64,000 nt of DNA from Oculatellaceae cyanobacterium bins.114 (GCA_033764315.1 JANRJA010000028.1:1-64000), one strand, 5' to 3'; positions 7,194-63,068 are shown, counted from the first letter of the stretch. Translations and numbers: made by a program. Notes: generated by a model from the sequence alone, not told the origin.

Positions 7194-8240
7194 CTACAAC
7201 CGTGCAGCACAAATTGCTGCCCCGATTAAACCCACATTGGAATTAATAATCACATGTACTGGTACCCGCTCAACCAGTGGGCTGACCCGTCCTTTGGCCG
7301 AAAACGCTTCTAAAAAGGTGCCCGATTTCATCAGGGTCAGGTTTTTGGCTGCAATGCCGCCCGCCAAATATAGACCCCCGTAGGGCAAAAGTTTTAGTGC
7401 CAGATTACCTGCCTCTGCGCCATAAGCAGACGCAAACAGTTGCATGGTTTGTTCTGAGAGGCGATCGCCTTCTGCTGCCGCTTTAGAAATCACTGCGGCT
7501 GGGTCTACCGTCTTCTCACTCATGCCCACCTCACCTTCCCAGGTGCGAATCTGCTCTGCTACCACAGGAGATTCATCTGAGACGTAGCGATCGCGCAAAA
7601 ACTGATAGACCGACACAATGCCCTGTCCTGAAACCACTCGCTCAACCGATACACGGCTAATCTTGTGTTTCTCTAAGAGATAGCGCATCAATTGAAATTC
7701 CAGTTCTGAGCGGGGGGCAAAATCGGCATGGCCGCCCTCTGAAGGATAAATCTTGTAGCTGTCGCCTTGACGAATTAAGAACCCTTGTCCCAATCCGGTG
7801 CCTGCCCCAATCACCGCGATCGGGGCATTCTCATCTAATTCTCCCACCTGCAACGTTTGCAAGTCTGAGGGTTCTAATCCCAAAACCCCGTATCCTACGG
7901 CTTCAAAATCATTGATCAACGACACCTGACCAATCATCAATTCTTCTTGAAGCCTCTCTCCACTTAAAGACCAGGGCAAGTTTGTCACCCGTGAGGTGTT
8001 ATTGACAACTGGACCTGCCACTGCAAAACAGGCCTTCTCTAATTTTGGAAAACTAACCAGTTCGAGTTCGGCTGCCACCAAAAACTTTCGCACCAATGGC
8101 ACTAAGTCTAAAAATTCAGCACTGGCATAGCGGTTTTCATACAACGGTTTGAGCTTTGTTTTGCCGTCACTTGTTTCAACTTCGACCAACCGCAAAATCG
8201 TCTTCGTTCCACCAATGTCTCCTGCCAGCAATAGTGTCAT
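7194..8240 (-). CDS. glk: Glucokinase
   Basis: LAGDIGGTKT, INDFEAVGYG, GAGTGLG, SEGGHADFAP, SVERVVSGQG, GGLYLAGGI. Confidence 0.95.
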   Translation of the reverse strand: MTLLLAGDIGGTKTILRLVEVETSDGKTKLKPLYENRYASAEFLDLVPLVRKFLVAAELELVSFPKLEKACFAVAGPVVNNTSRVTNLPWSLSGERLQEELMIGQVSLINDFEAVGYGVLGLEPSDLQTLQVGELDENAPIAVIGAGTGLGQGFLIRQGDSYKIYPSEGGHADFAPRSELEFQLMRYLLEKHKISRVSVERVVSGQGIVSVYQFLRDRYVSDESPVVAEQIRTWEGEVGMSEKTVDPAAVISKAAAEGDRLSEQTMQLFASAYGAEAGNLALKLLPYGGLYLAGGIAAKNLTLMKSGTFLEAFSAKGRVSPLVERVPVHVIINSNVGLIGAAICAARL

Positions 8241-9178: not shown

Positions 9179-9401
9179 TTACAATAGCTCAATAAACTCG
9201 TCCACACTCAACCCAACTTGGCAAATAATTGCTCGTAACGTTCCACGAGTCCACTCTTTATGATTTGGAACAACCACTTCAGCATAGAGATCATCGCGAC
9301 GCACAATAATTATGACTACCTTTTTGCCTAACAACGTCAAAGCCAATGCTTTTCAATGCCCTGATGCACTCTGCACCTGAGATACAGGATAATTTGCTCA
9401 T
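9179..9401 (-). pseudogene. hicA: Frameshifted HicA-family toxin
   Basis: MSKLSCISGAECIRALKSIGFDVVRQKGSH, then one extra A (CAT-A-ATT), then IIVRRDDLYAEVVVPNHKEWTRGTLRAIICQVGLSVDEFIELL*. Span is 223 bp (3n+1); ATGA overlap with the hicB stop. Confidence 0.85.
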
Positions 9402-9769
9402 ACATCGACCATAACTGTCTCAAAGCGATCTTCAGGAATCGATCGCCCCTCATCTTGCAACACTTCAAGGTAAAGCTGAATCGCTTCTTTGATATTTGCG
9501 ATCGCCTCTTTTTTGGTTTCACCTTGACTGATACAAGGTGGCAGACTTGGGCATTCAGCTACCCAATAGTTATCTTCATCTGGGTAAACAATTACTTGTC
9601 TTGTGTGAATTAGTTTGCTTGTTATAGCATCTTCAAACAATTCTCTCAGCAACACTCTCTTCTGGTTGTCTGAAAGATGCTTCACTTGACGAATAAAGTT
9701 TTCACCTGTCAACTCTGAAGATGAAGATAGTCTTGTTTCAGGACTATTAATGCTTAACCGTTTTATCAA
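9398..9769 (-). CDS. hicB: HicB-family antitoxin with N-terminal extension (start uncertain)
   Basis: RQVIVYPDEDNYWVAECPSLPPCISQGETKKEAIANIKEAIQLYLE is a typical short HicB; no ATG at the usual position. Confidence 0.75.
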   Translation of the reverse strand: MIKRLSINSPETRLSSSSELTGENFIRQVKHLSDNQKRVLLRELFEDAITSKLIHTRQVIVYPDEDNYWVAECPSLPPCISQGETKKEAIANIKEAIQLYLEVLQDEGRSIPEDRFETVMVDV

Positions 9770-9956: not shown

Positions 9957-12185
9957 TTAACCGAATCGACTCGATGTTGAGGCAATCAAGAAGGCAGCAT
10001 AGGTGAGGATATAACCCACAGTAAAGTGAGCTAAACCAACCAAACGACCTTGAACGATGGACATTGCCACTGGCTTATCTTTCCAACGAACCAAGTTCGC
10101 CAAAGGAGTACGCTCGTGTGCCCAAACAAGGGTTTCGATCAACTCTTGCCAGTATCCTCTCCAGGAGATTAAGAACATGAAACCTGTTGCCCAAACGAGG
10201 TGTCCAAAGAGGAACATCCACGCCCAAACTGACAAGTTATTCATGCCATAGGGGTTGTACCCGTTAATCAACTGAGCAGAGTTGAGCCAGAGATAATCTC
10301 GCAGCCAACCCATGATAGTAACGGAGGTCTCGTTAAACTGAGCAACGTTGCCTTGCCATACACCGAGGTGCTTCCAGTGCCAGTAGAAGGTCACCCAACC
10401 CAATGTGTTGAGCATCCAAAACATAGCGAGATAGAAGGAATCCCAACAGGAGATGTCGCAAGTACCGCCACGACCAGGGCCATCGCAAGGGAAGCTATAG
10501 CCAAAGTCTTTCTTGTCAGGCATCAGCTTAGAACCACGCGCATCCAACGCACCTTTGACCAAGATCAAAGTGGTGGTGTGCAGACCCAGAGCGATCGCAT
10601 GATGAACCAGGAAGTCACCAGGTCCAATGGTCAAGAACAGAGAGTTCGTTCCACTGTTAATGGCATCTAACCAACCGGGTAGCCACACGTTGCCGTGATT
10701 AGGCCAAGCTGTGGTTGCAATGCTGTCAGGGTTAGACAACAGCGTGTCGAAACCATACAGCACTTTACCGTGAGCCGCTTGAATGAACTGTGCGAACACA
10801 GGTTCAATCAAGATTTGCTTTTCAGGAGTCGCAAACGCTTGCATCACGTCGTTGTGGACGTAAATACCCAGGGTGTGGAAGCCCAAGAACAGAGACACCC
10901 AGCTCAGGTGAGAGATGATCGCCTCTTTGTGATTGAGCACGCGATCTAACACGTTGCCCTTATTCTGAGCCGGATCGTAATCCCGCACCCAGAAGATTGC
11001 ACCGTGAGCAAACGCACCTACCATCAAGAACCCAGCGATGTACTGGTGATGAGTGTAAAGTGCTGCTTGAGTGGTGAAATCCTTCGCCATAAACGCGTAA
11101 GGAGGCAACGAATACATGTGCTGAGCCACCAGAGAGGTGATTACACCCAACGCTGCCAGGTGGATGCCCAACTGGAAGTGCAGCGAGTTGTTGTAGGTGT
11201 CATACAACCCCTGGTGAGGCAAGTTGAACTGACCTTCAGAGCGAGGGCTAAACAGACCTGCTTTAGAATCCAACATCTCTTTGATGCTGTGACCAATGCC
11301 AAAGTTGGTGCGGTACATGTGACCGGCAACGATGAATAGGACAGCGATCGCCAAGTGGTGGTGAGCAATATCGGTCAACCACAGAGACTCAGTTTGAGGA
11401 TGGAAGCCACCCAGAAAAGTCAGAATCGCGCTACCAGAACCTTCTGAAGTGCTGAACACATGATTCAGTGAATCAGGGTTCTCAGCGTACACACCCCAGT
11501 TGCCCGTAAAGAATGGGGCTAGACCAGCGGGGTGAGGTTTGACGGAGAGGAAGTTATCCCAACCGACGTGAACACCGCGAGACTCAGGAATCGCAACGTG
11601 AATCAAGTGACCTGCCCAAGCCAAAGAGCTAACCCCAAACAAACCAGCCAAGTGGTGATTGAGGCGTGACTCTGCGTTCTTAAACCAGGACAAGCTGGGG
11701 CGGAACTTAGGCTGGAGGTGCAACCAGCCTGCAAATAACAGAACGGCTGCCAAAATGAGCAGGAATACAGCACCCTGATACAGTTCGCCATTGGTTCGCA
11801 TACCAATGGTGTACCACCAGTGATAAACGCCAGAATAAGCGATGTTAACAGGGTTTGAAGCACCCGCTTGAGTGAAGGCATCTACAGCGGGTTTACCAAA
11901 GTGAGGGTCCCAAATCGCATGGGCGATCGGGCGGACGTGCAACGGGTCTTGAATCCATTGCTCAAAGTTACCTTGCCAGGCGACGTGGAACAGATTACCC
12001 GATGTCCACAAAAAGATGATTGCAATATGACCAAAGTGAGAAGCAAAAATCTTTTGATAAAGATTTTCCTCTGTCATTCCGTCATGGCTTTCAAAATCGT
12101 GGGCAGTGGCAATCCCATACCAGATCCGACGTGTAGTCGGGTCTTGAGCCAGGTCTTGGCTAAATTTGGGGAATTTTGTTGCCAT
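9957..12185 (-). CDS. psaB: Photosystem I P700 apoprotein A2
   Basis: [22 protein letters not shown] start; [15 protein letters not shown] loop; full length, 742 aa. Confidence 0.99.
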
Positions 12186-12276: not shown

Positions 12277-14532
12277 CTAGCTTACTGCGATGATTCGAGC
12301 GAGGAAGAATGCCCAAGTGGTGACAATTCCTCCCAAGAGGTAGTGAGCTACCCCAACAGCCCGACCCTGAATAATGCTCAGAGCGCGAGGCTGAATTGCG
12401 GGGGCAACCTTCAGCTTGTTGTGGGCCCAAACAATGGACTCAATCAACTCTTGCCAGTAGCCACGACCACTAAACAAGAACATCAAGCTAAATGCCCAAA
12501 CGAAGTGTGCACCGAGGAACAGCAAGCCATAAGCTGACAACGCTGAACCATAGGAGCCGATCACCTGAGTCGCTTGTGCCCAGAGGAAGTCACGCAACCA
12601 ACCATTAATGGTGATGGCGCTCTGAGCAAAGTTACCGCCGGTAATGTGAGAAACGGAACCGTCCGCATTGACCGTACCCCACACATCTGACTGCATCTTC
12701 CAACTGAAGTGGAAAATAGCGATCGAGAGGGAGTTGTACATCCAGAACAGCCCTAAGAAGACGTGATCCCAACCAGAAACCTGGCAGGTGCCACCCCGAC
12801 CTGGACCGTCGCAGGGGAAGCGGAAGCCGAGTTGCGCCTTATCGGGGATGAGGCGAGAACTACGAGCAAACAGTACGCCCTTCAACAGAATCAGCACGGT
12901 GACGTGGATTGTAAAGGCATGGATGTGGTGCACCATGAAATCGGCTGTGCCGAGAGCAATTGGCATCATGGCAACCTTGCCACCAACAGCCACGACATCT
13001 CCACCGAACACAACACTAGCGGGAGCCAATGCATTTGGAGCGGTGCCACCCGGAGCCAGGGTATGAATGTTCTGAATCCACTGAGCAAATACAGGCTGAA
13101 GCTGAATTGCAGTGTCAGAGAACATGTCCTGAGGACGACCCAACGCACGCATGGTGTCGTTGTGGATGTATAAGCCGAAGCTGTGGAAGCCTAAGAAAAT
13201 GCAAACCCAGTTGAGGTGGGAGATGATGGCATCGCGGTGACGAATGACCCGATCGAGCAGGTTATTTTGGTTCACCTCAGGGTCATAGTCGCGCACCATG
13301 AAGATGGCACCATGAGCCGCAGCACCCACAATCAGGAAGCCTCCAATCCACATGTGATGCGTGAAGATGGAGAGTTGAGTGGGGTAGTCTGTCGCCAAAT
13401 AAGGATAAGGCGGCATGGAATACATGTGCTGCGCCACGATAATGGTCAACGAACCCAGCATTGCCAGGTTAATTGCCAATTGGGCGTGCCAGGAGGTAGT
13501 CAGAATCTCATAAAGACCCTTATGACCTTCTCCAGTGAAAGGACCTTTGTGCGCTTCTAAGATTTCCTTGATGCTGTGACCGATACCCCAGTTGGTGCGG
13601 TACATGTGACCTGCAATGATGAACAGGACAGCGATCGCCAAGTGGTGATGGGCTGTATCTGTCAACCATAGACCGCCAGTAACGGGGTTCAAGCCACCCT
13701 TAAAGGTGAGGAAATCAGAATATTCACCCCAATTCAGGGTAAAGAAAGGAGTCAACCCTTTCGCAAAGCTGGGATAAAGTTCTGCCATCAAACCTGAATT
13801 CAAAATGAATTCATGAGGCAGGGGAATGTCTTTAGGAGCAACCCCAGCATCCAACAGCTTATTGATAGGAAGAGATACATGAATTTGGTGACCTGCCCAG
13901 CCCAGTGAGCCGCAGCCCAATAGCACTGAGAGATGGTGATTCAGCATGGACTCCACATTCTGGAACCATTCCAGCTTGGGTGCCCGTTTGTGGTAATGGA
14001 ACCAGCCTGCAAACAACATCAGAGCAGCCATGACTAGACCACCGATTGCTGTTACATAGAGCTGGAACTCGTTAGTAATACCAGAGGCACGCCAAATTTG
14101 GAAAAATCCAGAGGTGACCTGAATCCCGTGGAAGCCACCACCTACATCTGCATTCAAAATTTCTTGTCCGACAATGGGCCAGACGACTTGAGCACTCGGT
14201 TTGATGTGCTATGGGTCACTGAGCCAAGCTTCATAGTTTGAAAAACGAGCGCCGTGGAAGTACATCCCGCTCAACCAGATGAACACCACAGCCAAATGAC
14301 CGAAGTGTGCACTGAAAATTTTGCGTGAAATGTCTTCTAGGTCACTGGTATGACTATCAAAATCGTGAGCGTCGGCGTGGAGGTTCCAAATCCAGGTTGT
14401 CGTTTTTGGACCTCTCGACAGGGTGCGATCGAAATGACCTGGCTTGGCCCACTTCTCAAATGAAGTAGGAACCGGATCATTGTCAACCACAACCCTGACT
14501 TTTGCCTCTCGCTCCCGTGGGGTAGTTGTCAT
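12277..14532 (-). pseudogene. psaA: Photosystem I P700 apoprotein A1, interrupted by an in-frame TAG at codon 108 (14209-14211)
   Basis: ATG at 14532 ([12 protein letters not shown]…) reads …[32 protein letters not shown]… in one frame to the stop at 12277. All other motifs ([13 protein letters not shown]) are intact. Typed pseudogene only because of this stop, which may be a sequence error. Confidence 0.9.
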
Positions 14533-14922
14533 CAGAGACTCTCCTCTCTCTAGACAAGGAACGATGGATATCCCTCTCCCCAAGCTCTACGTTCGGCAAC
14601 GACTCTCTTCTCAACCCATCCGTAAGTAGCAGATGTTTTATAACCAGGTTCATAAAACCTAGAGCGGGCACGTAACTTTTGTTAAGAGTTCGAGCTGTTT
14701 GAGAAGAGAAAGGGTCAATTCACTACTCTGAATGAAACGGAATAGTAGCCTGACCAAAACCGGGGGGGGTTTCCTAGAGATTATAAAGCGGTGCTGAATA
14801 CCACTTTAATCAGAGTTAACAATAATTCAAAGTGGGAAAATCTATATTTACTCTGCTTTTCAACTTTAGCCCTGAGCAGAAAGGGATTTATCAATCAAAT
14901 TTTGTTTACACATTGAAACATT
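14533..14922 (-). promoter_or_regulatory. psaA promoter and long structured 5' leader
   Basis: Minus-strand TATAAT near 14780-14785; hairpin GGTCA…CTACT…AGTAG…TGACC at about 14713-14755; HLR1-like (RpaB) direct repeat TTTACACA-TT-GAAACATT near 14905-14922. Confidence 0.45.
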
Positions 14923-15299: not shown

Positions 15300-16103
15300 T
15301 TAGACGGCTCGGCTACCCTTGGGGGCATAATTGCCCAACCACTCTAAAGTTGGGTTCAGCTCAAATAAAGTTGCTTTTACCATGCCAATCAAGAGGCTCC
15401 GTCGTTGAAAACGGTGTTTGCGATCGCTAGCGGCTTGTTGTTGCCCTGCTTTATAAGCATCCCAGGAAACATCTGTCATCACGGTAATAGCCAGATCGTT
15501 GACCATTTTTTGGCGAAACTTGACATGAATTTGCAGCAAGTCTTCCAGGCTGGTGTTGGGGTGATAAATTCCTACGTTTTGAGGGTTTCGCCATAGTAAG
15601 GAAATACTGCTGCTTGAGATTAAATCTCCTCTGACATGGGCCAACGTCCAATTTTGAGACAGGTTACTCAAAATGACTGGATTAGCGTTAATCATTTTTC
15701 CATCTGCTCCAAATATTTGCCCGACTTCGGCAAAGCAATAGTGCTGAGGATGGGCGAAGCAGCGTGCTAAGCCTGACGTGGGTTGCAGCGCATAATCTTG
15801 TAAGTGGACAAAGCCAAGGGCTTCTAGCTCTTTTGTCTGTTGTTCTAGCACAGCAACATCAAGCTGAAAGGCAAAGTCATTGGGAGTGACGGGTTGAAAG
15901 TCTAATTGATCAGGGAGCGATCGCATCAGTTTTTGTTTAATGCTGTGCACCTCCCACCCTGTAAAAAACAGCATGATGGCGGCAGCGAGAACCCCATTTT
16001 GCCACCCTGAAAAATACACCACTAAACCTGTGACTAAAGCTGCCCAAAATAAGCTGCTGCCGATCACAAACCAAAACTGTTGAATGCCGCTACTCAGTCT
16101 CAT
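15300..16103 (-). CDS. Hypothetical membrane-anchored protein
   Basis: 267-aa ORF with ATG start and two N-terminal TM helices. Confidence 0.75.
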   Translation of the reverse strand: MRLSSGIQQFWFVIGSSLFWAALVTGLVVYFSGWQNGVLAAAIMLFFTGWEVHSIKQKLMRSLPDQLDFQPVTPNDFAFQLDVAVLEQQTKELEALGFVHLQDYALQPTSGLARCFAHPQHYCFAEVGQIFGADGKMINANPVILSNLSQNWTLAHVRGDLISSSSISLLWRNPQNVGIYHPNTSLEDLLQIHVKFRQKMVNDLAITVMTDVSWDAYKAGQQQAASDRKHRFQRRSLLIGMVKATLFELNPTLEWLGNYAPKGSRAV

Positions 16104-16208
16104 GGGGGCTACCTGTGAATTGTGGGAACATTCGGAGGCTTTATCCGATATAGTGCCCTATGAGCAGACTTTAAATAAAGACAGGGTTGATGCCCAGGAG
16201 TGGCTTAG

Positions 16209-18167
16209 GTGTTTTGCAGACATTGGTGGTGGAGCAACGTAAAACAAGTCTTGGCAATCGTGCTGGTAATGCTAGTCGGTTTGACAACAGCAGGGTGTGG
16301 CAATCACCCCGTCACACGCACTAGTGCCCCCAGTGAGTCTGCCATCTTGACAAATAGGCTCACGGAGGTAGCTCCGCCCGCAACAATTCAAGCCCTGCGG
16401 CAGGCGTTAGAAGCCTATCAGCCCCAAGTCAAAATTCTCAGTCCCCGATCGAATGATGTAATCCAGAGCGATCGCCTCTCAGTAAGGTTTCAGGTCAAAG
16501 ACTTACCCCTCTTTAAAGATGAGGAACTGGGTTTAGGCCCCCACCTGCATGTTTTCCTAGATAACCAACCTTATACAGCGGTTTACAACACCGAGGAGCC
16601 TCTCGTCTTTGAGAATCTGACTCCAGGGACTCATACTATTCGAGCTTTTGCCTCTCGACCCTGGCATGAAAGCTTTAAAAATGAAGGTGCTTTTGCTCAA
16701 ACCACGTTTCACGTTTACACCAAAACGCCTGATAATCTGCCCGACCCCACTCAACCTCTATTAACTTACAGCCGACCTCAAGGGAGTTATGGGGCAGAGC
16801 CAATTTTATTAGATTTTTATTTGACAAATGCTCCCCTGCATCTGATTGCTCAGGAACGATCAGACGATGAAATTCGAGATTGGAAAGTGCGCTGCACTGT
16901 CAATGGACAAAGCTTTACCTTTAATGCCTGGGAAGCCATCTACTTAAAAGGTTTGAAACCAGGTAAAAACTGGGTGCAGTTAGAACTGCTCGATGAAAAC
17001 AACAATCCGTTTAACAACACTTTTAATAACACCGTTCGCGTGGTGACCTACGAGCCTGATGGAGATGATACCCTCTCTAAATTAGTCAGAGGTGATCTAT
17101 CTGAGGCTGAAGCGCGTGGCATGGTTGACCCCAACTACGTTCCTGAGTTGCCTACCCCTGAGCTACCTGCTCCTGAACCTACTCCTGAACTCACTCCAAC
17201 CCCCGTTCCTGAGGCTGACACCGCTCCAGCCCCCCTTCCTAGTCCTGAATCGGTTGTAACTCCTGATTCGGCAGCAGAGCAGACGGAACTGGAACCCTTA
17301 ACCACTGACATTGAAGAAAATCCTGTAACCGAGCCAAAAGAAGAGGCTGAGCCACAAGAGCCTGAACCAGTAGCTCCGCCTCCAACAGAACCCCCAAGCG
17401 AATCTTTGGAAGAGAGTCCTCCATCTGAGCCGACTGAAGGGGAAACTCCAGTCGCGCCCACGCCACCATCTGAACCTGTCAAAGCCAGAGGATTTTTTGA
17501 TCGCTTCAAGCGGCGTGCTCCAGCCTCAACTCCTGCCCCGGTCATGACTCCTGCTCCTGCCCCGACTGAGTCAGAGCCTCTCATTGAACCCAATACTGAG
17601 GAAGCTGCTGACGCCAAAATTGAGTCATCTGACACTGAGTCATCTGATACTGGGGCATCTCAAGAAGAGCCTAGTGTGGAGGAACGGGTTCCTGTATCTC
17701 CGGCACCAGAGACGGCAGTGCCCGCTCCACCATCGTCTGAACCACCACCGTCTGAACCAGCGGCGACCGAGACGGTAGCACCCGATAGAGACACAAGAGA
17801 CACACCTGATGTTGAGGAGGTGCTTGCTGCGCCAACCGTCACATTTGAAGAGAGAGCGGCGGAGAGTTCAGCGGTTGAATCTAACTCAGACGAAACTCCT
17901 ACACTCGATTCTTTACCCGAAAAGTCAGAACCAACCCCTGCTGGGACAGAGCCAAAGCGACCCAGTGGGGAGATCTCGAAGCGATCGCCCGTTCAAGAAT
18001 TTTTTAATCGGTTTCGTTCCCCTGCCCCGGCTCGTCGTGCGGTTGCCCCACCTCCTGCTTCCCCTGAGATTCCGGAGGTGATTGAAATTCCTGAACCTGT
18101 GCTAGAAGTGCCCGATGCAGTTGTCCCTGATTCAGACTCCTCGCCTGAGTTAGGTCAAGAGGGCTAA
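16209..18167 (+). CDS. Lipoprotein-like protein with conserved N-terminal domains and a Pro/Glu-rich disordered tail
   Basis: Lipobox-like LTTAGC; GLGPHLHVFLDNQPY…RAFASRPWHESFKN domain; low-complexity PE-rich C-half. Start uncertain. Confidence 0.8.
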   Translation: MFCRHWWWSNVKQVLAIVLVMLVGLTTAGCGNHPVTRTSAPSESAILTNRLTEVAPPATIQALRQALEAYQPQVKILSPRSNDVIQSDRLSVRFQVKDLPLFKDEELGLGPHLHVFLDNQPYTAVYNTEEPLVFENLTPGTHTIRAFASRPWHESFKNEGAFAQTTFHVYTKTPDNLPDPTQPLLTYSRPQGSYGAEPILLDFYLTNAPLHLIAQERSDDEIRDWKVRCTVNGQSFTFNAWEAIYLKGLKPGKNWVQLELLDENNNPFNNTFNNTVRVVTYEPDGDDTLSKLVRGDLSEAEARGMVDPNYVPELPTPELPAPEPTPELTPTPVPEADTAPAPLPSPESVVTPDSAAEQTELEPLTTDIEENPVTEPKEEAEPQEPEPVAPPPTEPPSESLEESPPSEPTEGETPVAPTPPSEPVKARGFFDRFKRRAPASTPAPVMTPAPAPTESEPLIEPNTEEAADAKIESSDTESSDTGASQEEPSVEERVPVSPAPETAVPAPPSSEPPPSEPAATETVAPDRDTRDTPDVEEVLAAPTVTFEERAAESSAVESNSDETPTLDSLPEKSEPTPAGTEPKRPSGEISKRSPVQEFFNRFRSPAPARRAVAPPPASPEIPEVIEIPEPVLEVPDAVVPDSDSSPELGQEG

Positions 18168-19021
18168 AGGGTGGGGGAAGAGAGAATCTGGAGAATCTTA
18201 CTAACATTATCTAAATCGCCCACAATTCGCCGTACTGGAGGAGGATAGACCTTGACAAGGGTTGGAGTAGCGGCAATTTGGTCACTCTCTGCCATATCAG
18301 GGTGTTTGTAAATATCTACGACTTTGAGCGTGTAGGGATGTTTGAGCGATCGCTCTAGTAATTGGTGTAGGTGCTGCAAAATTCGCTCGGTGGCTGCGCT
18401 ATTGCCCGAAACATAGAGCCGCAACACATAGCCCTGTGTTGTCGGTGTCACTGCCACAGGAGACCACAAAAGATTTGAGCTTTTAGAGTGAGGTTGAGCA
18501 GTGCTGGCTTTAATCTGATCCAGCTGTACGACTAACTCATGGTTTTTCCACAGTTGAGGAAATTGGTTTTGATACGTGGAGATGACAACCGGATCACACA
18601 TATCCTCCAACCCTGGAATGGCTTGCCAAATGACATCGTCAAGCCCAAAGATGGCATTCAGCAGCCCTTGATAGCGCAACACTAGAGGCGATGCCTCTGC
18701 ATAAGTTTCAATCTGTTGAGTCTGAGGATTGAGCCACCGATCGACCGTAGCTGCATAAAACGGAGATAAAAAGTGAGGTAACTCGCCAAGTCCTAACATC
18801 TCTTGCAACGTCGCACACAGTTGCACATGCCAGCGATCGCGCTTGTGGGGGTCAATGCAATACACTAAGTCTCCACCTGGAGTAAATAGCGCAATGCCCT
18901 TAAAAATCTCGGAGTGATGAGTAGTTGAGGACGAATAAACCACAGAACTCACAGTTTTAATTGCTCTAAAGATGTATTGGTGATGAGTTGAGGTGGCTAT
19001 GACAGGCTTTGCCTGCCACAT
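18164..19021 (-). CDS. KaiB-like domain protein with a large N-terminal domain
   Basis: C-terminal GYVLRLYVSG…YTLKVVDI…AESDQIAATPTLVKVYPPPVRRIVGDL is the KaiB fold; true start probably downstream of 19021. Confidence 0.85.
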   Translation of the reverse strand: MWQAKPVIATSTHHQYIFRAIKTVSSVVYSSSTTHHSEIFKGIALFTPGGDLVYCIDPHKRDRWHVQLCATLQEMLGLGELPHFLSPFYAATVDRWLNPQTQQIETYAEASPLVLRYQGLLNAIFGLDDVIWQAIPGLEDMCDPVVISTYQNQFPQLWKNHELVVQLDQIKASTAQPHSKSSNLLWSPVAVTPTTQGYVLRLYVSGNSAATERILQHLHQLLERSLKHPYTLKVVDIYKHPDMAESDQIAATPTLVKVYPPPVRRIVGDLDNVSKILQILSSPTL

Positions 19022-21236: not shown

Positions 21237-23150
21237 ATGCATTTGAGTGAAGTTACACATCCCAATCAGTTACACGGTCTATCGATTCCACAGCTGAAGC
21301 AAATTGCCCGCCAAATTCGAGAAAAGCATTTGGATACTGTCGCCGCTAGTGGTGGACATTTGGGTCCGGGCTTAGGTGTGGTGGAACTTACGTTGGGACT
21401 GTATCAGACGCTTGATTTAGATCGTGACAAAGTGATTTGGGATGTGGGGCATCAGGCTTATCCTCACAAACTTATTACTGGACGGTATGACCGATTTCAC
21501 ACGCTGCGGCAAAAGAATGGCGTGGCTGGATATTTAAAGCGGTGTGAGAGCAAGTTTGACCATTTTGGGGCGGGGCATGCCTCTACTAGCATTTCTGCGG
21601 CGTTAGGAATGGCACTAGCACGAGATTTGCGGGGCGATCGCTTTAAGGTGGCGGCTGTCATTGGAGATGGAGCCTTGACGGGTGGTATGGCGTTAGAAGC
21701 CATTAATCATGCTGGGCACCTGCCTAAAACCAACCTGTTGGTCGTTCTAAATGATAACGAGATGTCGATTTCTCCGAATGTAGGGGCGATTCCTCGCTAT
21801 CTCAACAAAATGCGGCTAAGCCCTCCGATGCAGTTTTTGACTGACAACCTAGAAGAGCAGTTCAAGCATTTGCCCTTTGTGGGTGAGTCTCTGTCGCCTG
21901 AGTTGAGCCGCATCAAAGAGGGAATGAAGCGTTTAGCGGTTCCTAAAGTTGGGGCTGTGTTTGAAGAGCTAGGCTTTACTTACATCGGTCCAGTCGATGG
22001 TCACAACCTGGAGGAGTTGATTGCTACCTTCCAGCAAGCTCATCAGCACCCAGGGCCAGTGTTAGTGCATGTGGCAACGACAAAAGGCAAAGGATATGCG
22101 ATCGCTGAGCAAGATCAGGTTGGCTACCACGCTCAGTCTCCCTTTAACCTGGCGACTGGGAAAGCGTTGCCCGCTAGCAAGCCCAAGCCACCTGACTATG
22201 CCAAAGTCTTTGCCCACACTCTGGTGAGATTGGCAGAAAATAACTCCAACATTGTGGGGATTACGGCTGCAATGGCAACCGGAACGGGCTTAGATAAGTT
22301 GCAAGCCAAATTGCCAAAACAGTATATCGATGTGGGGATTGCTGAGCAACATGCGGTCACATTAGCAGCCGGCTTAGCCTGTGAGGGGATGCGTCCTGTG
22401 GTTGCTATCTACTCCACTTTCTTGCAACGGGCATTTGACCAGATCATTCACGATGTCTGTATTCAAAATTTGCCGGTGTTCTTTTGTCTTGATCGAGCAG
22501 GCATTGTTGGGGCAGATGGGCCAACCCATCAGGGGATGTATGACATCGCTTATCTGCGGTGTATTCCCAATATGGTGTTGATGGCTCCTAAAGATGAAGC
22601 CGAGCTACAGCGGATGATTGTGACGGGCATTAACCATATCGATGGGCCGATTGCTCTCCGCTATCCCCGTGGCAGTGGACAAGGGGTGCCCCTGATGGAA
22701 GATGGTTGGGAGCCGTTACCCATTGGCAAAGCTGAGATCTTGCGGCAAGGCGACGATCTGCTCATGGTGGGCTATGGCACGATGGTTTATCCGGCGATGC
22801 AAGCCGCAGAAATCTTAAGTGAACATGGCATTGAAGCAACTGTGATTAATGCTCGGTTTGCTAAACCCATCGATACAGAACTGATGCTACCGCTGGCTCG
22901 CCAGATTGGGCGAGTCGTCACCCTCGAAGAGGGCTGTGTCATGGGTGGCTTTGGGACGGCGTTGGCGGAGGCACTCCTAGACGCTGGGGTTGCTGTGCCG
23001 ATTACCCGAATGGGTGTCCCTGATCTATTGGTCGATCATGCTAAACCAGATGAGTCGATGAAAGCCTTGGGGCTGACGGGGCCTCAAATCGCAGAGCGAT
23101 TGCTCCAGCAATGGACTCCTCAACCTCAACCTGTTGTTGTGAGTGACTAG
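21237..23150 (+). CDS. dxs: 1-deoxy-D-xylulose-5-phosphate synthase
   Basis: [30 protein letters not shown]…[20 protein letters not shown]. Confidence 0.98.
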
Positions 23151-23251: not shown

Positions 23252-23310
23252 CCATCAGAGTTTTTCTTCGTTAGCCTAATGAATAGGATGAGTTATGGGC
23301 GGTGAAACGA

Positions 23311-23718
23311 ATGAAGGTATTTATCAGCTATGCAAATCCGGATAAAGAGTTGGCAACACGAGTAACTCATGCTTTGAAGGCTTCTGGTTTTCAAGTCTGG
23401 GATGACTCTCAAATTCTTCCAGGTGAAAACTGGAGGGAAAGCATTGCTACGGCCCTTCAAGAATCGGATGCGATCGTTGTCTTACTCACCCCTAGCTCTG
23501 TCCATTCTCCCACTGTTACACAGGATATTGGCTACGCCCTAGGAAAACAAGACTATAAAGGAAAACTCATTCCTGTTGTTGCAGCCTCTACCGAGCAATT
23601 GCCCCAAGAAGAAATTCCCTGGATTCTGAAACGCCTCCGAATGATCCATATCCCTAATCTTGAAGATGATGAAGAGGGATTAAGGGAAATTACCCAAGCT
23701 CTTAAAGCAGTTGCCTAA
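23311..23718 (+). CDS. Standalone TIR-domain protein (TIR_2-like), Asp at the catalytic Glu position
   Basis: KVFISYA…VWDD…ILPGENW…ALQESDAIVVLLT…SPTVTQDIGYA…KLIPV. Confidence 0.85.
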   Translation: MKVFISYANPDKELATRVTHALKASGFQVWDDSQILPGENWRESIATALQESDAIVVLLTPSSVHSPTVTQDIGYALGKQDYKGKLIPVVAASTEQLPQEEIPWILKRLRMIHIPNLEDDEEGLREITQALKAVA

Positions 23719-23821
23719 TTTAAGGCTAGTTACAACGAATTCATCTTTAAGTAAAGTGTCTAAACTGAATGTCAAGGTTTCACCCCTGAAATCGTTGCTT
23801 CATCTAATCCAGTTGCAACTT

Positions 23822-24247
23822 ATGACACCGAGCGAAGCATTTTTGTCTCATTCCAGCCAGGATCAGGAATTTGTCTCTGCATTAGCGAGTGAGCTTCGAC
23901 GTCATGGCGTTCCGATTTGGTACAGCAAAACCAATATTCTGGGGGCACAGCAGTGGCACGACGAAATTGGCAACGCTTTGAAGAGATGTGATTGGTTCCT
24001 GGTTGTTCTTTCCAATAGCTCAGTGGAGTCAATGTGGGTCAAACGTGAGTTAATCTTTGCGCTTCAACAAAATCGTTTTGAGAATAAAATCGTACCTCTC
24101 TTATATCAACCCTGCGATTATGAGAAGCTCTCTTGGGTTTTACCCAGTTTCCAATTCATTGATTTCCAAGGTGATTTTGAGATCGGTTGCCGGGACATAC
24201 TTCGTCTTTGGGGAATTGGTTATCAATCTAGTTCCAAAAAACCATAG
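23822..24247 (+). CDS. Standalone TIR-domain protein (TIR_2-like)
   Basis: AFLSHSSQD…WHDEIGNALKRCDWFLVVLS…SMWVKREL…KIVPLL…QFIDF; ATG at 23822. Confidence 0.88.
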   Translation: MTPSEAFLSHSSQDQEFVSALASELRRHGVPIWYSKTNILGAQQWHDEIGNALKRCDWFLVVLSNSSVESMWVKRELIFALQQNRFENKIVPLLYQPCDYEKLSWVLPSFQFIDFQGDFEIGCRDILRLWGIGYQSSSKKP

Positions 24248-27736: not shown

Positions 27737-29542
27737 TTAGATAAAAGAACTGGCTCTCAAGGCAGACGGGAGAACCCCTAAAAGCTTGGCAATTGAGCGA
27801 TCGCCCACTTCTAAAATCGAGGCATTCCCTTGCTGCAAAATATCGAGATCTCTAAAGTGCACTCCTCTCGGTAGACTGAGGCGATCGCTACCCAAGGCAA
27901 AATCACGAATCAGAGCGAAGCCCTGGCGATGTAACACAAACGTATCGCGTTCTTGATTGCCCACTAACACGTTGTATCCCACCCCACCCACCAGCAGATC
28001 TTGACCTGCACCACCTAAGAGGCGATCGTTGCCTGTACTGCCATACAACCGATCATCCCCATTGCCAGCGATCAGCATATCGTTGCCGATGCCACCATCC
28101 AATGAATCTTCTCCATTACCGCCAATCAGCGTGTCATTGCCACCCAAACCTAAGAGCGTGTCATCCCCTGCTGCACCATCTAGCACATCTCGTCTGGGTG
28201 TTCCTGATACCGTTTCACCTTGAGGATCTAAAACCCACAGTTCATTACCATGAACACCATCACTTGCCTCAAAATAAAGCCTGCCGCCAAACTGAGTGAA
28301 ATTGGCTGGATTGGAGCCATTGCGACCCAGGTTGATGTCTTGAAGCATCCGCGTTCCCGTGGGTGTGCCATCACTCACCCACAGTTCGCGCCCATGCGTG
28401 CCATCGTCAGCAGTGAAATACAGCTTGTTATTAAATTGAAATAACGGCGGATTTTCAAACGACACAGGATTTGAATGACCACTAGGGTTAATGTCTTTAA
28501 CGAGTTGGGTTCCTGCGGTGGTGCCGTCGCTGACCCACAACTCGTTGCCGTAAATGCCGTCATCCGCGGTGAAATAGAGTTTGCCACCTAACTCAGCAAA
28601 AGCGAGTGGGAATGAATGACCACTAGGGTTAATGTCTTTGACGAGTTGCGTTCCGTCTACTGTGCCGTCGCTGACCCATAACTCTCTGCCATGATCATCG
28701 TCATTAGCACTGAAATAGAGTTTGTCACCAACCACAGTAAAATTAGACGGACTCGAACTGGAAGAGCTGATGTCTTTGACGAGTTGCGTTCCTGCTGCGG
28801 TGCCGTCGCTGACCCACAACTCCTCGCCATACAGACTGTCGGTGCCACTGAAATAAAGCCTGCCACCAAACTCAGTAGGAAATTTAGGATTGCCAATGGG
28901 TTTACTCCAGAGAATGGCATTACTTGTGGGATCGATGACTCCTACAGCCGTCATGTCACTGAAATACAGCTTGTCCTGAAATTCAGTAAACGGTTTTGGG
29001 AACAAAATGTCATTGCCACCTATAAGCTGTTGCGTTCCAGTAGTCGTACCATCTGTCACCCAGAGGTTTGTCGTGAAGACTAATGCGCCCTCTTCAGTCT
29101 TGAAATAGAGCTTGTTACCCGCTTGAACAAAAGCTGTTGGATTGGAATTACCATAAAAAATGTCAGGGGGGTGCTCATCAATATCTTTGAAGAGGTGAGT
29201 CCCAAGACCTGTTCCGTCACTCTGCCACAACTCCTGCCCATGCACCCCATCATCAGCACTGAAATAAAGCTGGTTGAGAAAATTTGTGAAAGATGTTGGG
29301 ATAGAGCTATTTGTGCCTGGATAAAGGTCTTTTAGTAGGTGAGTTCCGCTGGGTGTGCCATCGCTGACCCAAAGCTCAGAGCCATGAGCGGGATCAGCGG
29401 CAGTGAAATAGAGGCGATCGCCCAACTGAGTCAAGGCTTGCGGATGCGAGCCTCCGCCACCGGAGTAAATATCTTTAAAGAGTTTGATTACCCCTGCATT
29501 CCGAGTGGACGATGTTGCGGTTGTCCTGGAATGAGTACTCAT
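27737..29542 (-). CDS. ELWxxDGT-repeat surface protein with C-terminal RTX (GGxGxD) calcium-binding repeats
   Basis: Multiple ELWVSDGT…LVKDI repeats; GGNDTLIGGNGEDSLDGGIGND nonapeptides; no Sec signal, so probably a T1SS substrate. Confidence 0.92.
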   Translation of the reverse strand: MSTHSRTTATSSTRNAGVIKLFKDIYSGGGGSHPQALTQLGDRLYFTAADPAHGSELWVSDGTPSGTHLLKDLYPGTNSSIPTSFTNFLNQLYFSADDGVHGQELWQSDGTGLGTHLFKDIDEHPPDIFYGNSNPTAFVQAGNKLYFKTEEGALVFTTNLWVTDGTTTGTQQLIGGNDILFPKPFTEFQDKLYFSDMTAVGVIDPTSNAILWSKPIGNPKFPTEFGGRLYFSGTDSLYGEELWVSDGTAAGTQLVKDISSSSSSPSNFTVVGDKLYFSANDDDHGRELWVSDGTVDGTQLVKDINPSGHSFPLAFAELGGKLYFTADDGIYGNELWVSDGTTAGTQLVKDINPSGHSNPVSFENPPLFQFNNKLYFTADDGTHGRELWVSDGTPTGTRMLQDINLGRNGSNPANFTQFGGRLYFEASDGVHGNELWVLDPQGETVSGTPRRDVLDGAAGDDTLLGLGGNDTLIGGNGEDSLDGGIGNDMLIAGNGDDRLYGSTGNDRLLGGAGQDLLVGGVGYNVLVGNQERDTFVLHRQGFALIRDFALGSDRLSLPRGVHFRDLDILQQGNASILEVGDRSIAKLLGVLPSALRASSFI

Positions 29543-29576
29543 ACAGTTTCTCCTGGTATGAGATGTTAGATTTTAT

Positions 29577-29623
29577 CCCTAATACAAGTTGTCCTTAAGA
29601 CAAGTTGTCCCCAATACAATTGT
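29577..29623. repeat. Three tandem 15-16-bp repeats CC(C/T)(T/C)AA(T/G)ACAA(G)TTGT
   Basis: Units at 29577-29592, 29593-29608 and 29609-29623, just upstream of the ELWxxDGT gene. Confidence 0.7.
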
Positions 29624-29678
29624 ATTTTGGGGATTGTGGGAAGTAGGGCGATCGCCACTAAACGTTAGGTTCGCTCAA

Positions 29679-32204
29679 TCACTTTGGACAATTTTCGAGT
29701 CGGCTCATCAAGGTAGACAGCATCCAGCTATCTGTGGCGCAGCCTCCCCGTCCATGACCGATGCCCCATGCACGCAATGATTCAGCGATCGGAATTTTCC
29801 AAAACCACAGTGCCGGGAGGTGCCCTTCGGGGGCTTGGGGGGTAAATTTTAAACTGCTGTAGGGCAAAAAGATACGCATTTTTTTGTGCCACCAGCCAAC
29901 GCGATCGCCAAACAGAGCGGCATCCCCCTTATGAGTATCTCGATAGAGACGATGTTGAGCACTAAAGCCAAAGCGTCCACCACTGCTTTCAGTCCACAGG
30001 TGGTCAATCGTCCGCAAATCAACACAAGGGAAGTTTTCTAAGGCAGCGCGATCGAGCCATCCTGCTTTTTCTCGCCCGGTGGCTTTTAGCATAATAGTAA
30101 AGGTTTCTTCATCGGCTCCGCGCCACTGATGGGTGTGCAAGAGTTCGTTCAGAAGGGTGTAGTCAATACCTCGCTCAGAGAGTAACGGGTGTGACGGGGT
30201 TTGAGGTGGCTCTTCCACGGTTGCCACTGGAGGAGACGGTTGGGGCAATGGAGGTGGAGATGAAACGGGTTGAGCGGGCTCCACCACTGGCTCTTGAATC
30301 ACCGTCTCAGGAGGGGGTTGATGCAGGGCTTCTTCGTGTCGCTGTTGTTCAAGTTTTTCCTGTTGTTTCAGAAACAGGTCTGCCTCTCGCGCCGAAGACA
30401 CCTGTTTCTCAACCTGTTGAACATCGGTTTCTCGCAAACCCAGTGATTTTTGCAAATTTCGCAATTCATACCGCGCATACTCACCTGGCGGATATTCCAG
30501 GTTGATCACCTGAGTAAAACGCTGTTCATAGAGGTTCAGTTTGTTTTGATAGGCTTTTTCCTGCTCTCGAATTTTGCCGACGATGCGGGTTTCAACCTGA
30601 GTCACGTCTTCATCGCGCAAACCCAGGTGTTGCTGAAACTGCTTGAGTTCCTGCCGAGTGGTCTCACTGAGGGGCAGTTCTCGATCAACTTCTTGGGCAA
30701 ACTTAAACTCGTAGTGTTGAAGGTTTTGCTGATAGGCTTCGGCGTCGCTCTTATTTTGCTCCATCACCTGCTGCTCAATTCGGCTGACATCATCGTCTCG
30801 CAACTCCAGGGAGTGTTGAAATTTTCGGAGTCCATCGCGGGTGAACTCGCTGATCGGCAACCCTAACGAAACGGCTTGAGTGAACTCATATTCATAATGT
30901 TGCAGCTTCCGGCGATAGGCTTCTTCCTGGGCAGCAAGTTGAGACCGAATTTCGGCTTGAATCGGAGCCACATCCTCGTCACGCAGACCCAGCACCTCTT
31001 GCAATTCCCGTAATTCTGTGGCTGTGCGACTACTAAAGGGATATTCACGACGGGCGATCGCCTCATAAATCTCGCCATATTGCTGAATATGGTTCAATCG
31101 CTCTCGATGCTTAGACTCCCGCTGATATGCCTCTACTTTAGCCGCAATTTCGCGCTGAATCGGGGCCACATCTTGATCGCGCAAGCCCAGATAATGTTGC
31201 AGAGTTTTGAGTTGTTCGTGAATGCCCTCGTTGAGCAGATATTCTTGCTCGATCGGGGCAACGGCATCGCGATACTGTCGCAATAGGTTTTGGTAGTCGC
31301 GGTAAGGTTGCAGCACTTCTTCTTCGATCACCGCTGCATGAATGGGGGATAAACCAAATCGCACTCGTTGGGTATCGAGAATCGTTCGTCCGACTTCTGA
31401 AATCTTGCCCTGACTGGCATATTTCTCGACTTCCTGGCGATAGTGCCGTTGTGGATCGTTGATCTTGACTCTGGCGATCTCAAAGCGGAGATCGGCTTCA
31501 TTCAGCCGAATAATCTTAGGATCAACGCCTGGAGCCGCTTCTGTGACACGTTTGCGGACGTACTCGTGCAACTCATCTGCGGACACACAGCCGTCAAAGT
31601 CGCGATCGGCGACTCCAGTGCTAATGCCTTCTACCAGGTAATGGGTGTAAAGGGAGCGATCGGCGCGTTTTTGTACAAAGGAATAATGCCCATTAGAAGA
31701 CGGCATCAGCACGACCCGTCCTGCTGCACCAAACTGATGCTCTACGCTGATTGGGCTACTATTGCGATCGCTCAATCGCTCATTTGTTAAAGCCTCTCCA
31801 GAGCACCAATCTAAAATCACCACCTGTTGTTTGGATTGGCTCTGCTCAAAACAATCACGAACAAAGTTTGCCGACACCGCTGAGGCTTTAATCAGATGAT
31901 TTTGCTGGTTCTTATAGGTGTTGCGGGCTGCAAAGTAGAGGTTGTGGTGCTCGTCATAGACGCGATGCCCTGAGAAAAACAGCAGCACCAGATCGTTGGA
32001 GGTGTGACTGCTTGACCAGGTTTCGATCGCCTCTGCCATCTCAGATTGACTAGGGTTGATCAGCGGCTTGACCACATCAAAGTCACCGATCTCCTGATTT
32101 TCCAGCACATGCTGTAAGGCTTCCACGTCATTAGAAGCCGCTGGCAGCGGTCTTAAACCTGACCCATATTCACTTACCCCAATCAGCAGCGCAACCCTAG
32201 CCAT
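29679..32204 (-). CDS. Caspase-like (C14) domain + tandem helical repeats + GUN4-like domain protein
   Basis: ARVALLIGVSEY…LPAASNDV…LLFFSGH…VILDWCSG; repeated LQxxLGLRDEDV; C-terminal SERGIDY..L..LL…W.GADEET…FPC.DLRTID.LW…S.GRFGFS.Q…APEGHLP. Confidence 0.88.
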   Translation of the reverse strand: MARVALLIGVSEYGSGLRPLPAASNDVEALQHVLENQEIGDFDVVKPLINPSQSEMAEAIETWSSSHTSNDLVLLFFSGHRVYDEHHNLYFAARNTYKNQQNHLIKASAVSANFVRDCFEQSQSKQQVVILDWCSGEALTNERLSDRNSSPISVEHQFGAAGRVVLMPSSNGHYSFVQKRADRSLYTHYLVEGISTGVADRDFDGCVSADELHEYVRKRVTEAAPGVDPKIIRLNEADLRFEIARVKINDPQRHYRQEVEKYASQGKISEVGRTILDTQRVRFGLSPIHAAVIEEEVLQPYRDYQNLLRQYRDAVAPIEQEYLLNEGIHEQLKTLQHYLGLRDQDVAPIQREIAAKVEAYQRESKHRERLNHIQQYGEIYEAIARREYPFSSRTATELRELQEVLGLRDEDVAPIQAEIRSQLAAQEEAYRRKLQHYEYEFTQAVSLGLPISEFTRDGLRKFQHSLELRDDDVSRIEQQVMEQNKSDAEAYQQNLQHYEFKFAQEVDRELPLSETTRQELKQFQQHLGLRDEDVTQVETRIVGKIREQEKAYQNKLNLYEQRFTQVINLEYPPGEYARYELRNLQKSLGLRETDVQQVEKQVSSAREADLFLKQQEKLEQQRHEEALHQPPPETVIQEPVVEPAQPVSSPPPLPQPSPPVATVEEPPQTPSHPLLSERGIDYTLLNELLHTHQWRGADEETFTIMLKATGREKAGWLDRAALENFPCVDLRTIDHLWTESSGGRFGFSAQHRLYRDTHKGDAALFGDRVGWWHKKMRIFLPYSSLKFTPQAPEGHLPALWFWKIPIAESLRAWGIGHGRGGCATDSWMLSTLMSRLENCPK

Positions 32205-32435: not shown

Positions 32436-33041
32436 CTATGCCTCACTCCCAAATACCTGGTCTGCCGTTAACTGCAATTCTGGAAACTCAGGGGATGCGA
32501 TCGCCTCACTTCCTTTGACTGTCCCCACTTCTATATAAGCTCCATCCTGGAGTTGCAGCACCGTCACTGTTTGTTCTTCAGGATCAATCAGCCAATACTC
32601 CGGAATCTCACACGCAGCATACTGATCGCGTTTACGGATCAAATCTCTTTCACGGTTTTGCTTTCCTGGACTCAGTACTTCAGCCACTAATCGAGGGGGC
32701 GGCATGTCGAGGGTAATCGTTAACCGTTTTTGGGTCAGAGCGAGATGTTCTGGTCGCAAAATCACCAAATCTGGATAGCGATTGGCACTGTCTCCAGAGC
32801 GCAGAATCGGCACTTGCAACTCAAGACTGTGGATCACGATCAGTCGAGGAGAAATTTTGCCACTGTTAGCGATCGCCAACATCAGACAACGCGCAATCCA
32901 ATTGTTGATTTCTGACTCTGGTGGCACTTCGACTAACTCCCCATTGGTCAGCTCAAACCGACCCTCGCGATGGTTCTCAGGGTCATCGCTCCAGGTCAAA
33001 TACTCTTCAAAGCTGGCGAATTTAATTTTGGATTGAGTCAT
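32436..33041 (-). CDS. Uma2-family (DUF820) putative endonuclease
   Basis: FELTNGELVEVPPES, RYPDLVIL, PRLVAEVLSPG, KRDQYAACEIPEYWLIDP. Confidence 0.93.
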   Translation of the reverse strand: MTQSKIKFASFEEYLTWSDDPENHREGRFELTNGELVEVPPESEINNWIARCLMLAIANSGKISPRLIVIHSLELQVPILRSGDSANRYPDLVILRPEHLALTQKRLTITLDMPPPRLVAEVLSPGKQNRERDLIRKRDQYAACEIPEYWLIDPEEQTVTVLQLQDGAYIEVGTVKGSEAIASPEFPELQLTADQVFGSEA

Positions 33042-56971: not shown

Positions 56972-57688
56972 ATGAAACTCATGGTCAGGCAACACCCCAA
57001 TCCTCGATCTAGTTCAGAGCAGGCTCATCTGCCCCCACTTCAAAGTGGCGATCGCCTTACCCGTCCTGAATTTGAACGGCGTTATGCAGCAGATTGCCAC
57101 ATTAAAAAAGCAGAACTCATCGAAGGTATCGTTTACGTGGCATCTCCCTTACGGTTTCAACAACATGCAGAGCCTCATAGCCGCATACATGGATGGCTTT
57201 GGACATACCAAACCGCAACACCAGGGCTACGTCTAGGTATTGAACCAACCGTTCGCCTGGATTTGGATAATGAACCTCAACCTGATATTGTGCTGATTTT
57301 GGATGAAGCAGTAGGAGGGCAGGCGAGGCTAACGGAAGATGGCTACCTGGAAGGTGTCCCTGAATTTGTGGTAGAAATTGCAGCCAGTAGTGCCGCCATC
57401 GATCGAGGCAGTAAAAAGCAAGCCTATCGCCGCAATGGCGTGTTGGAGTATGTCGTTTGGCAATCCTACGACAATCAACTGGAGTGGTTTTATCTCACGG
57501 ATGGCGAGTATCAGTTGCTCTCCCCGGATGCAGATGGCATTCTTCGCAGCCAAGTATTTCCAGGGTTGTGGTTGGCAGTTGAGGCGTTGTTAAGTAATCA
57601 AATGGCGAGGGTGTTGGCAGTACTGCAAGAGGGGTTGCAGTCACCAGAACATCGGGTTTTTGTAGAACAGTTGGAGTTGCGGAAGTAA
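56972..57688 (+). CDS. Uma2-family (DUF820) putative endonuclease
   Basis: LQSGDRLTRPEFERRY, KAELIEG, EPQPD, VVEIAASS, YRRNGVLEY. Confidence 0.93.
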   Translation: MKLMVRQHPNPRSSSEQAHLPPLQSGDRLTRPEFERRYAADCHIKKAELIEGIVYVASPLRFQQHAEPHSRIHGWLWTYQTATPGLRLGIEPTVRLDLDNEPQPDIVLILDEAVGGQARLTEDGYLEGVPEFVVEIAASSAAIDRGSKKQAYRRNGVLEYVVWQSYDNQLEWFYLTDGEYQLLSPDADGILRSQVFPGLWLAVEALLSNQMARVLAVLQEGLQSPEHRVFVEQLELRK

Positions 57689-62425: not shown

Positions 62426-62758
62426 ATGAAAACTCAAAATATTGAGATTCCCTACGAAAAAATTGCTCACTTCTGTCAGCACTGGCAAGTCACTGAATTT
62501 GCTTTGTTTGGTTCTGTATTGCGCGAAGACTTTCGTCCTGATAGTGATATTGATGTCATGGTGCAGTTTGATACAAATGCTTACCCAACCTTTTTTGATC
62601 TATCAAATATGGAAGATGAGCTAAAAACGATTTTTCAGCGCGATGTTGATCTGGTGACTCGTAAAGGCATTGAATCTAGCCGCAACTATCTCCGTCGTCA
62701 AGCCATTCTTTCATCCGCTCAGGTGATCTATGGAACGCGATCTCCAATCTCTTCTTGA
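62426..62758 (+). CDS. MNT-family nucleotidyltransferase antitoxin (MntA-like)
   Basis: FGSVLREDFRPDSDIDV (GSX10DXD); RDVDLV. Confidence 0.92.
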   Translation: MKTQNIEIPYEKIAHFCQHWQVTEFALFGSVLREDFRPDSDIDVMVQFDTNAYPTFFDLSNMEDELKTIFQRDVDLVTRKGIESSRNYLRRQAILSSAQVIYGTRSPISS

Positions 62759-63068
62759 CATTCTTCTATCTGCTCAAATTGCGACTAACTATCTCGCAGA
62801 GCGATCGCGGGATGACTTGGAAACCGATTTGCAACTGCAAGATGCCGTCGTTCGTAGACTCCTGATTATTGGTGAAGCCTCAAGACGAGTTTCAGAAACA
62901 ACGCGCCAAACTTTATCGACAATACCGTGGGCTGCAATCAATGGCATGAGAAATCGGCTTGTCCATGAATATGATGAAGTTGACCTGGATATTGTTTGGA
63001 GTACTGTAATTAACAGCTTACCTACGCTAATCGAAGAACTTGAGAAAATCGTTCCCCTCAAAATGTAA
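62730..63068 (+). CDS. HEPN / DUF86 ribonuclease toxin (HepT-like)
   Basis: DAVVRRLLIIGEA, IPW, GMRNRLVHEY (RX4HXY); overlaps the MNT gene. Confidence 0.92.
   Translation: MERDLQSLLDILLSAQIATNYLAERSRDDLETDLQLQDAVVRRLLIIGEASRRVSETTRQTLSTIPWAAINGMRNRLVHEYDEVDLDIVWSTVINSLPTLIEELEKIVPLKM

Follow-up and report, generated by a model that had tools for sequence, protein, structure and literature searches.

The psaA gene in the 64,000-nucleotide stretch of DNA analysed here (the window), which comes from Oculatellaceae cyanobacterium bins.114 (GCA_033764315.1 JANRJA010000028.1:1-64000), contains an in-frame amber codon at codon 108, and this TAG is the only defect of the gene. On balance, we lean toward the reading that the cells carry a sense codon at this position and that the recorded TAG is either a consensus or base-call error or else an unfixed allele, in the minority or heteroplasmic, that the assembly fixed. 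The TAG would then be no recoding signal but a lesion of one base that arose very recently, in a psaA on which purifying selection otherwise acts in full; the simplest original codon would be TTG (Leu), one T-to-A change away, and the organism would most likely make ordinary full-length PsaA from the sense codon. We infer that such a sense version exists in the cells. What speaks for it is that the lesion stands alone, that it is shared by none of the relatives among the matches listed, and that TAG is a normal terminator in this DNA.

At present the case matters mainly for annotation, in which a single base would be enough to relegate an essential, highly conserved photosystem gene to the pseudogenes. 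If the stop were real and fixed, one would have to ask by what means a phototroph manages when a core gene of its PSI is broken: a second copy, heteroplasmy in a polyploid cell, read-through or a split protein. In that case alone would the gene say something about how far PSI can still assemble when PsaA is interrupted. Full-text literature searches brought up no paper describing a cyanobacterial psaA with an internal in-frame stop. The nearest published case found is the plastid of Karlodinium veneficum, where, in the excerpted text of the source, psaA and psaB both carry in-frame stops in an otherwise photosynthetic organism and 10 of 70 genes contain stops; other genes there require frameshifts, sequence divergence is very high, and RNA editing is the explanation that the authors prefer (PMC3082547). 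Here, by contrast, there is one stop in one gene on a bacterial chromosome, in a sequence that is not divergent. RNA editing of the Karlodinium kind is, to our knowledge, not known in cyanobacteria.

The psaA locus and its internal stop

The features of the locus are collected in Table 1. The codons around the site read AGT GAC CCA TAG CAC ATC AAA CCG on the minus strand, and translation from the ATG gives MTTTPRE...AWLSDP*HIKPSAQ...ARIIAVS* (asterisks, stops), with the internal stop and the terminal TAG as its only interruptions. The first-pass annotation had placed an in-frame amber here, splitting psaA into a 107-aa ORF and a downstream in-frame ORF beside an intact psaB. Its coordinates, codon number and quoted codons agree with the translation, although it left unstated that psaA lies on the minus strand, and both ORFs exist: one at 14209..14583, which gives 107 aa when counted from the ATG, and one at 12277..14157, which gives 626 aa when started from the TTG at codon 126. 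Each matches the PsaA profile of NCBIfam, TIGR01335. The N-terminal piece covers profile positions 1-108 of 752 (E 1.9e-61, 208 bits), and the C-terminal piece by itself covers positions 127-751 of 752, scoring 1370.8 bits against a cut-off of 862.55. PsaB matches TIGR01336 from end to end (positions 1-734 of 734, 1558 bits), as expected of the intact gene that had been claimed. The gene thus has the family profile of a PsaA, but its frame is broken by the TAG at codon 108.

Table 1. Features of the psaA locus, and two further TAG-terminated genes, by position in the window
Feature	Coordinates	Strand	Basis
psaA	ATG 14532 to final TAG 12279-12277	minus	translation of 14640..12277
psaA codons 1-107, N-terminal stromal segment and first transmembrane helix	14212..14532	minus	translation, TIGR01335
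Internal in-frame TAG, codon 108, next base C (CCA TAG CAC)	14209..14211	minus	sequence, translation
psaA codons 109-751, same frame as the N-terminal part, without further lesion	12280..14208	minus	translation, TIGR01335
Terminal TAG of psaA, genuine	12277..12279	minus	translation
TTG, codon 126, first canonical start past the internal stop, 51 nt downstream	14155..14157	minus	ORF list
GAGGAG ribosome-binding motif, 5' of the psaA ATG (14532)	14541..14546	minus	sequence read directly
psaB, intact, 742 aa, 91 nt downstream of psaA	9957..12185	minus	TIGR01336
dxs, ends in TAG	21237..23150		
mtnA, ends in TAG	24352..25410		

Residues 1-107 align one to one with the PsaA chain of PDB entries of the 1jb0 type, and the C-terminal part contains the conserved 12-residue stretch of the PsaA core, which carries the Fx cysteines. 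The gene order, psaA and then psaB, is that of the ordinary cyanobacterial operon (TIGR01335 / PF00223), except that the profile is matched in two pieces and that a TAG stands in place of the Leu or Thr codon at 108; the protein is 92-95% identical to PsaA of Leptolyngbya-like cyanobacteria. Because it has psaB as its neighbour, lies in a housekeeping context and shares 92-95% identity with ordinary PsaA proteins, this psaA is the standard copy and not obviously a dispensable paralogue; on the same context and identity, we also reject the possibility that it is a spare paralogue, far-red or other. At its other end, the gene closes with IAVS-TAG, one residue before the terminal Gly of most relatives, an ending also found in 2 of the 78 relatives among the matches listed.

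Constraint on the gene, codon 108 in relatives, and the search for other copies

A scan of genome contigs gave at least 80 related loci (in at least 888 stretches), with a best identity of 92% among the matches listed; full-length PsaA ORFs could be taken from 78 and PsaB ORFs from 68 of the 80 loci listed, the others being cut at locus ends. At all 390 PsaA columns that are invariant in these 78 listed relatives the window agrees (390/390), where each listed relative itself shows 0-5 private changes, with a mean of 0.6. The claim that psaA shows no other decay is therefore well borne out: there is one internal stop in 751 codons, no frameshift and no change at an invariant column among the matches listed, and dN/dS lies between 0.02 and 0.07. 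The several lesions and relaxed selection of a decaying pseudogene are not seen in these comparisons.

Against the five nearest relatives among the matches listed, dN/dS was 0.035-0.066 for the part before the stop, with dS saturated in two comparisons, and 0.021-0.048 for the part after it, and on either side it falls in the range found among the intact listed relatives. Because dS exceeds 1.2 or is saturated, these ratios show only that constraint held over nearly all of the history of psaA, and a very recent inactivation would leave no trace in them.

PsaB differs from its 68 listed relatives at one of 401 invariant columns, within the control range of 0-6 per sequence among those relatives. 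This sole difference, G452A, is an Ala at codon 452 (10830-10832, minus strand, computed from the codon number), where 68 of 68 listed relatives have Gly.

Position 108 is variable, as had been stated: among the 78 full-length relatives listed, the column holds L in 40, T in 32, I in 3, A in 2 and M in 1. None of them (0/78) has a stop there, and no stop was found at the aligned site in 154 PsaA and PsaB segments from the 80 loci listed, all of which are sense. The codons used by the 78 are TTA (13), ACG (10), ACC (10), TTG (9), ACT (8), CTG (6), CTA (6), CTC (5), ACA (4) and six rarer ones. Among the codons found at 108 in the listed relatives, TTG is the only one separated from TAG by a single change, so that the step from TTG to TAG proposed earlier is indeed one change from a codon in use at this position (9/78). 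On the other hand, a TTG predecessor is plausible but undocumented in the closest lineages among the matches listed: the five nearest relatives listed have ACG, ACT, CTG, ACG and ACC, each two changes from TAG. Two relatives at 92-93%, from Oculatellaceae-like sources, have L at 108 followed by H, and the window also has H after the stop.

Also weighing against a sense codon in the cells, no independent sense-codon copy was found in a collection of 15 billion proteins. Exact look-up returned none of three psaA pieces (626, 107 and 124 aa), nor any of ten otherwise identical full-length PsaA proteins with L, T, Q, Y, K, E, S, W, I or A at 108. The nearest protein in the collection is a metagenomic PsaA, 95% identical, with T at 108, and of 542 short N-terminal PsaA fragments in it none is more than 92% identical to the fragment in the window. 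The PsaA clusters at 90% identity are huge (the nearest has 2151 members), and near-identical full-length relatives could escape similarity searches. Eight of ten other proteins of the window are present, from an NCBI source only, and the absence of psaA beside them would fit a record whose annotation had put psaA down as a pseudogene. As six of these eight are alone in their 90% clusters, there appears to be no conspecific genome in this collection, and no second assembly was found in it; the glucokinase of the window clusters at 90% with that of Oscillatoria sp. FACHB-1407.

The surrounding sequence bears on a base-call error and on a fixed null alike. A six-frame scan for single stops flanked on either side by 70 or more open codons found 16 such sites, of which only the one in psaA lies inside a gene; two others that touch real genes (2296 and 50692) are ordinary boundaries between neighbours. 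The remaining conserved genes in the window, among them dxs, glk, mtnA, sppA, cysK and pilT, each match a family profile over its whole length. Since the assembly is otherwise without poor signs and this is the only in-gene stop of the 16, a random error exactly at this base is improbable in itself. Repeats between psaA and psaB that might mislead an assembler do not reach the site either: twelve short direct-repeat families were found within and between the two genes, none of them over 14209-14211, and misassembly between these paralogues was rejected. The clean neighbourhood cuts both ways, a fixed null in a phototroph being improbable as well.

We hold it possible, if rather doubtful, that the TAG is genuine, present in every genome copy and simply a null, PSI being supplied by a second psaA elsewhere in the genome or else lost from the sequenced line, which would then live on organic carbon or under dim light. 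The TAG does stand in the sequence as given, the window otherwise looks accurately assembled, and a very young null fits the absence of decay as well as an error does. However, no second psaA or psaB lies within the 64-kb window, and the gene affected is the standard copy discussed above. PsaA is required for PSI, and a fixed null in a phototroph should therefore be strongly selected against. PSI-less strains of Synechocystis need glucose and dim light. Such strains of Synechocystis sp. PCC 6803 have been made and used (PMC13183708, citing Shen et al. 1993, in the extract of that source), and to that extent a cyanobacterium can survive without PsaA and PsaB under special conditions (PMC13183708, same extract); those were engineered deletions kept on glucose, however, and nothing here shows a source organism without PSI. 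The window includes a glucokinase gene (7194-8240), to which we give little weight. Glucokinase genes are common in cyanobacteria.

Translation past codon 108

If the TAG were real, full-length PsaA might still be made by read-through, with a near-cognate tRNA (Gln, Tyr or Lys) or a CUA-anticodon suppressor encoded elsewhere decoding the codon; we judge this unlikely. The variability of column 108, with its five residues in the 78 relatives among the matches listed, would make a substitution there tolerable in principle. However, the listed relatives have only hydrophobic or small residues there, and none has Gln, Tyr or Lys; nor is the stop conserved in any of them. The site falls in a non-helical stretch between the helices at 65-92 and 155-180, by hydropathy and a low-confidence model, which is also in keeping with read-through.

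In 52 other ORFs of at least 90 aa, the terminator is TAA in 26, TAG in 17 and TGA in 9, and the psaA terminal TAG, if read through, would add 12 codons before a TAA, a tail absent in the 78 relatives among the matches listed. Global amber recoding, which had already been excluded on the ground that dxs, mtnA and psaA itself end in TAG (as they do), is thus excluded on broader grounds, and a suppressor that worked efficiently would lengthen 17 of 52 neighbouring proteins, besides giving PsaA the tail. Bacteria read through stops at a background level of about one percent or lower, far too little for such an abundant membrane protein.

The first-pass annotation had further called UAG-C a relatively leaky context, and this point does not hold up well. 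After the 17 terminal TAGs of the window the next base is C in 7, G in 6, A in 2 and T in 2; since TAG-C is the commonest terminal TAG context (7/17), the cell evidently terminates well there. A +4 C raises read-through in yeast and tRNA-Gln can misread UAG in E. coli, both of which lend read-through some credit, while for cyanobacteria the same source, in the part that treats them, gives no clear +4 pattern for UAG (PMC5289835, excerpted text).

Within the 64-kb window there is no tRNA gene (0) and no Rfam family, and the 141 nt around the stop show no stable RNA structure: the minimum free energy is -33.8, while 200 shuffled sequences average -37.5 (z = +0.95), 166 of them equalling or bettering the native fold. 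None of the usual marks of programmed recoding is present: the stop is unconserved in the relatives among the matches listed, TAG is a common terminator, and a stimulatory structure is absent.

Two special forms of recoding were considered and rejected. Frameshifting or hopping at CCA-TAG is at odds with the conserved HIKPSAQ that follows directly in the zero frame. Pyrrolysine and selenocysteine are at odds with TAG as a common terminator, with the lack of structure at the site and with a column that is hydrophobic or small in relatives; we know of no Pyl machinery in cyanobacteria.

Alternatively, PsaA could be made as two polypeptides, residues 1-107 with one transmembrane helix and a restarted C-terminal piece, which would assemble into PSI; this we judge extremely unlikely. 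A precedent exists in Chromera velia, where PsaA1 and PsaA2 are made separately and are both found in PSI (PMC12830998, citing Janouskovec et al. 2013); on the excerpted text of that source, it is the only precedent known to us for a PsaA interrupted at the protein level, a PSI core subunit in two pieces that assemble (PMC12830998). The position of the break is compatible with such a split. Hydropathy peaks are centred at residues 80-86 and 163-172. The stop lies 12-15 residues past the first hydrophobic helix and far short of the second, in a loop between helices and not within one; the earlier placement of residue 108 after the first helix agrees with both hydropathy and the model. The DSSP helices of the model (65-92, 100-105 and 155-180) come from an AlphaFold2 prediction with the TAG read as Q and a 21-row alignment, which is unreliable (mean pLDDT 33.9, pTM 0.28), and they count only as agreement with hydropathy. 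From the known topology of PSI, we take the site to be a lumenal loop. Both pieces are equally constrained, but their long shared history would lead one to expect this whichever hypothesis holds.

Re-initiation at the TTG at 14157, which had been proposed for the second piece, is weakened on several counts. The restart drops 17 residues, 9 of them invariant in the 78 relatives among the matches listed. The codon is an ordinary Leu codon, encoding Leu in 78 of 78 listed relatives and written TTG in 18 of them. None of GGAG, GAGG or AGGA occurs in the 21 nt 5' of the TTG, whereas the real ATG has GAGGAG, and no promoter-like site was found near it. In a split of the Chromera kind, the second piece would be expected to bring a start codon and a translation signal of its own and to retain the conserved residues; by that measure the C-terminal piece falls short. 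The Chromera break, moreover, lies between TMH4 and TMH5, its ends are remodelled and it is clamped by a new dedicated subunit, PsaV (PMC12830998, extract); there it is a fission into two genes, whereas here a point stop lies between TMH1 and TMH2 with no start signal of its own, and it is common to no relative among the matches listed.

That the TAG is real in every genome copy of a photoautotroph with no other psaA, with PSI arising from read-through or a two-piece PsaA, is in our view very unlikely. If true, either mechanism would be the first for a cyanobacterium, and a split would be the second independent case after Chromera. The order in which the first-pass annotation had placed the explanations (error, recent null, read-through, split) is consistent with our results, with read-through and split both weakened.

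Other genes of the window

Directly downstream of psaB is an ORF for a HicB-like antitoxin (9398-9769, minus), and near the end of the window is a MntA/HepT toxin-antitoxin pair (62426-63068, plus). At 23302-24247 (plus), two adjacent ORFs of 138 and 178 aa, which overlap by 8 nt, give weak matches to TIR-domain anti-phage proteins (Thoeris ThcB4, retron-TIR; E 1e-8 to 5e-11, far below cut-offs); these may be two small TIR proteins encoded side by side, or a single gene that a frameshift has broken. Two genes for Uma2-family putative endonucleases lie at 32436-33041 (minus) and 56972-57688 (plus), with Pfam E values of about 1e-32 each.

Beside psaA, two ORFs within 15300-18167 (267 aa, minus, and 652 aa, plus) have no NCBIfam or Pfam match at E 1e-5. 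The gene at 18164-19021 (minus) encodes a 285-aa protein whose last ~80 residues form a KaiB domain (Pfam E 4.8e-27), the preceding ~195 being without a family match. At 27737-32204 (minus), a 601-aa protein that combines seven ELWxxDGT repeats with calcium-binding repeats of the RTX type adjoins one of 841 aa that begins with an EACC1-associated type of caspase domain, and at 59253-61976 (plus) there is a 907-aa NACHT NTPase of the STAND type with C-terminal HEAT repeats.
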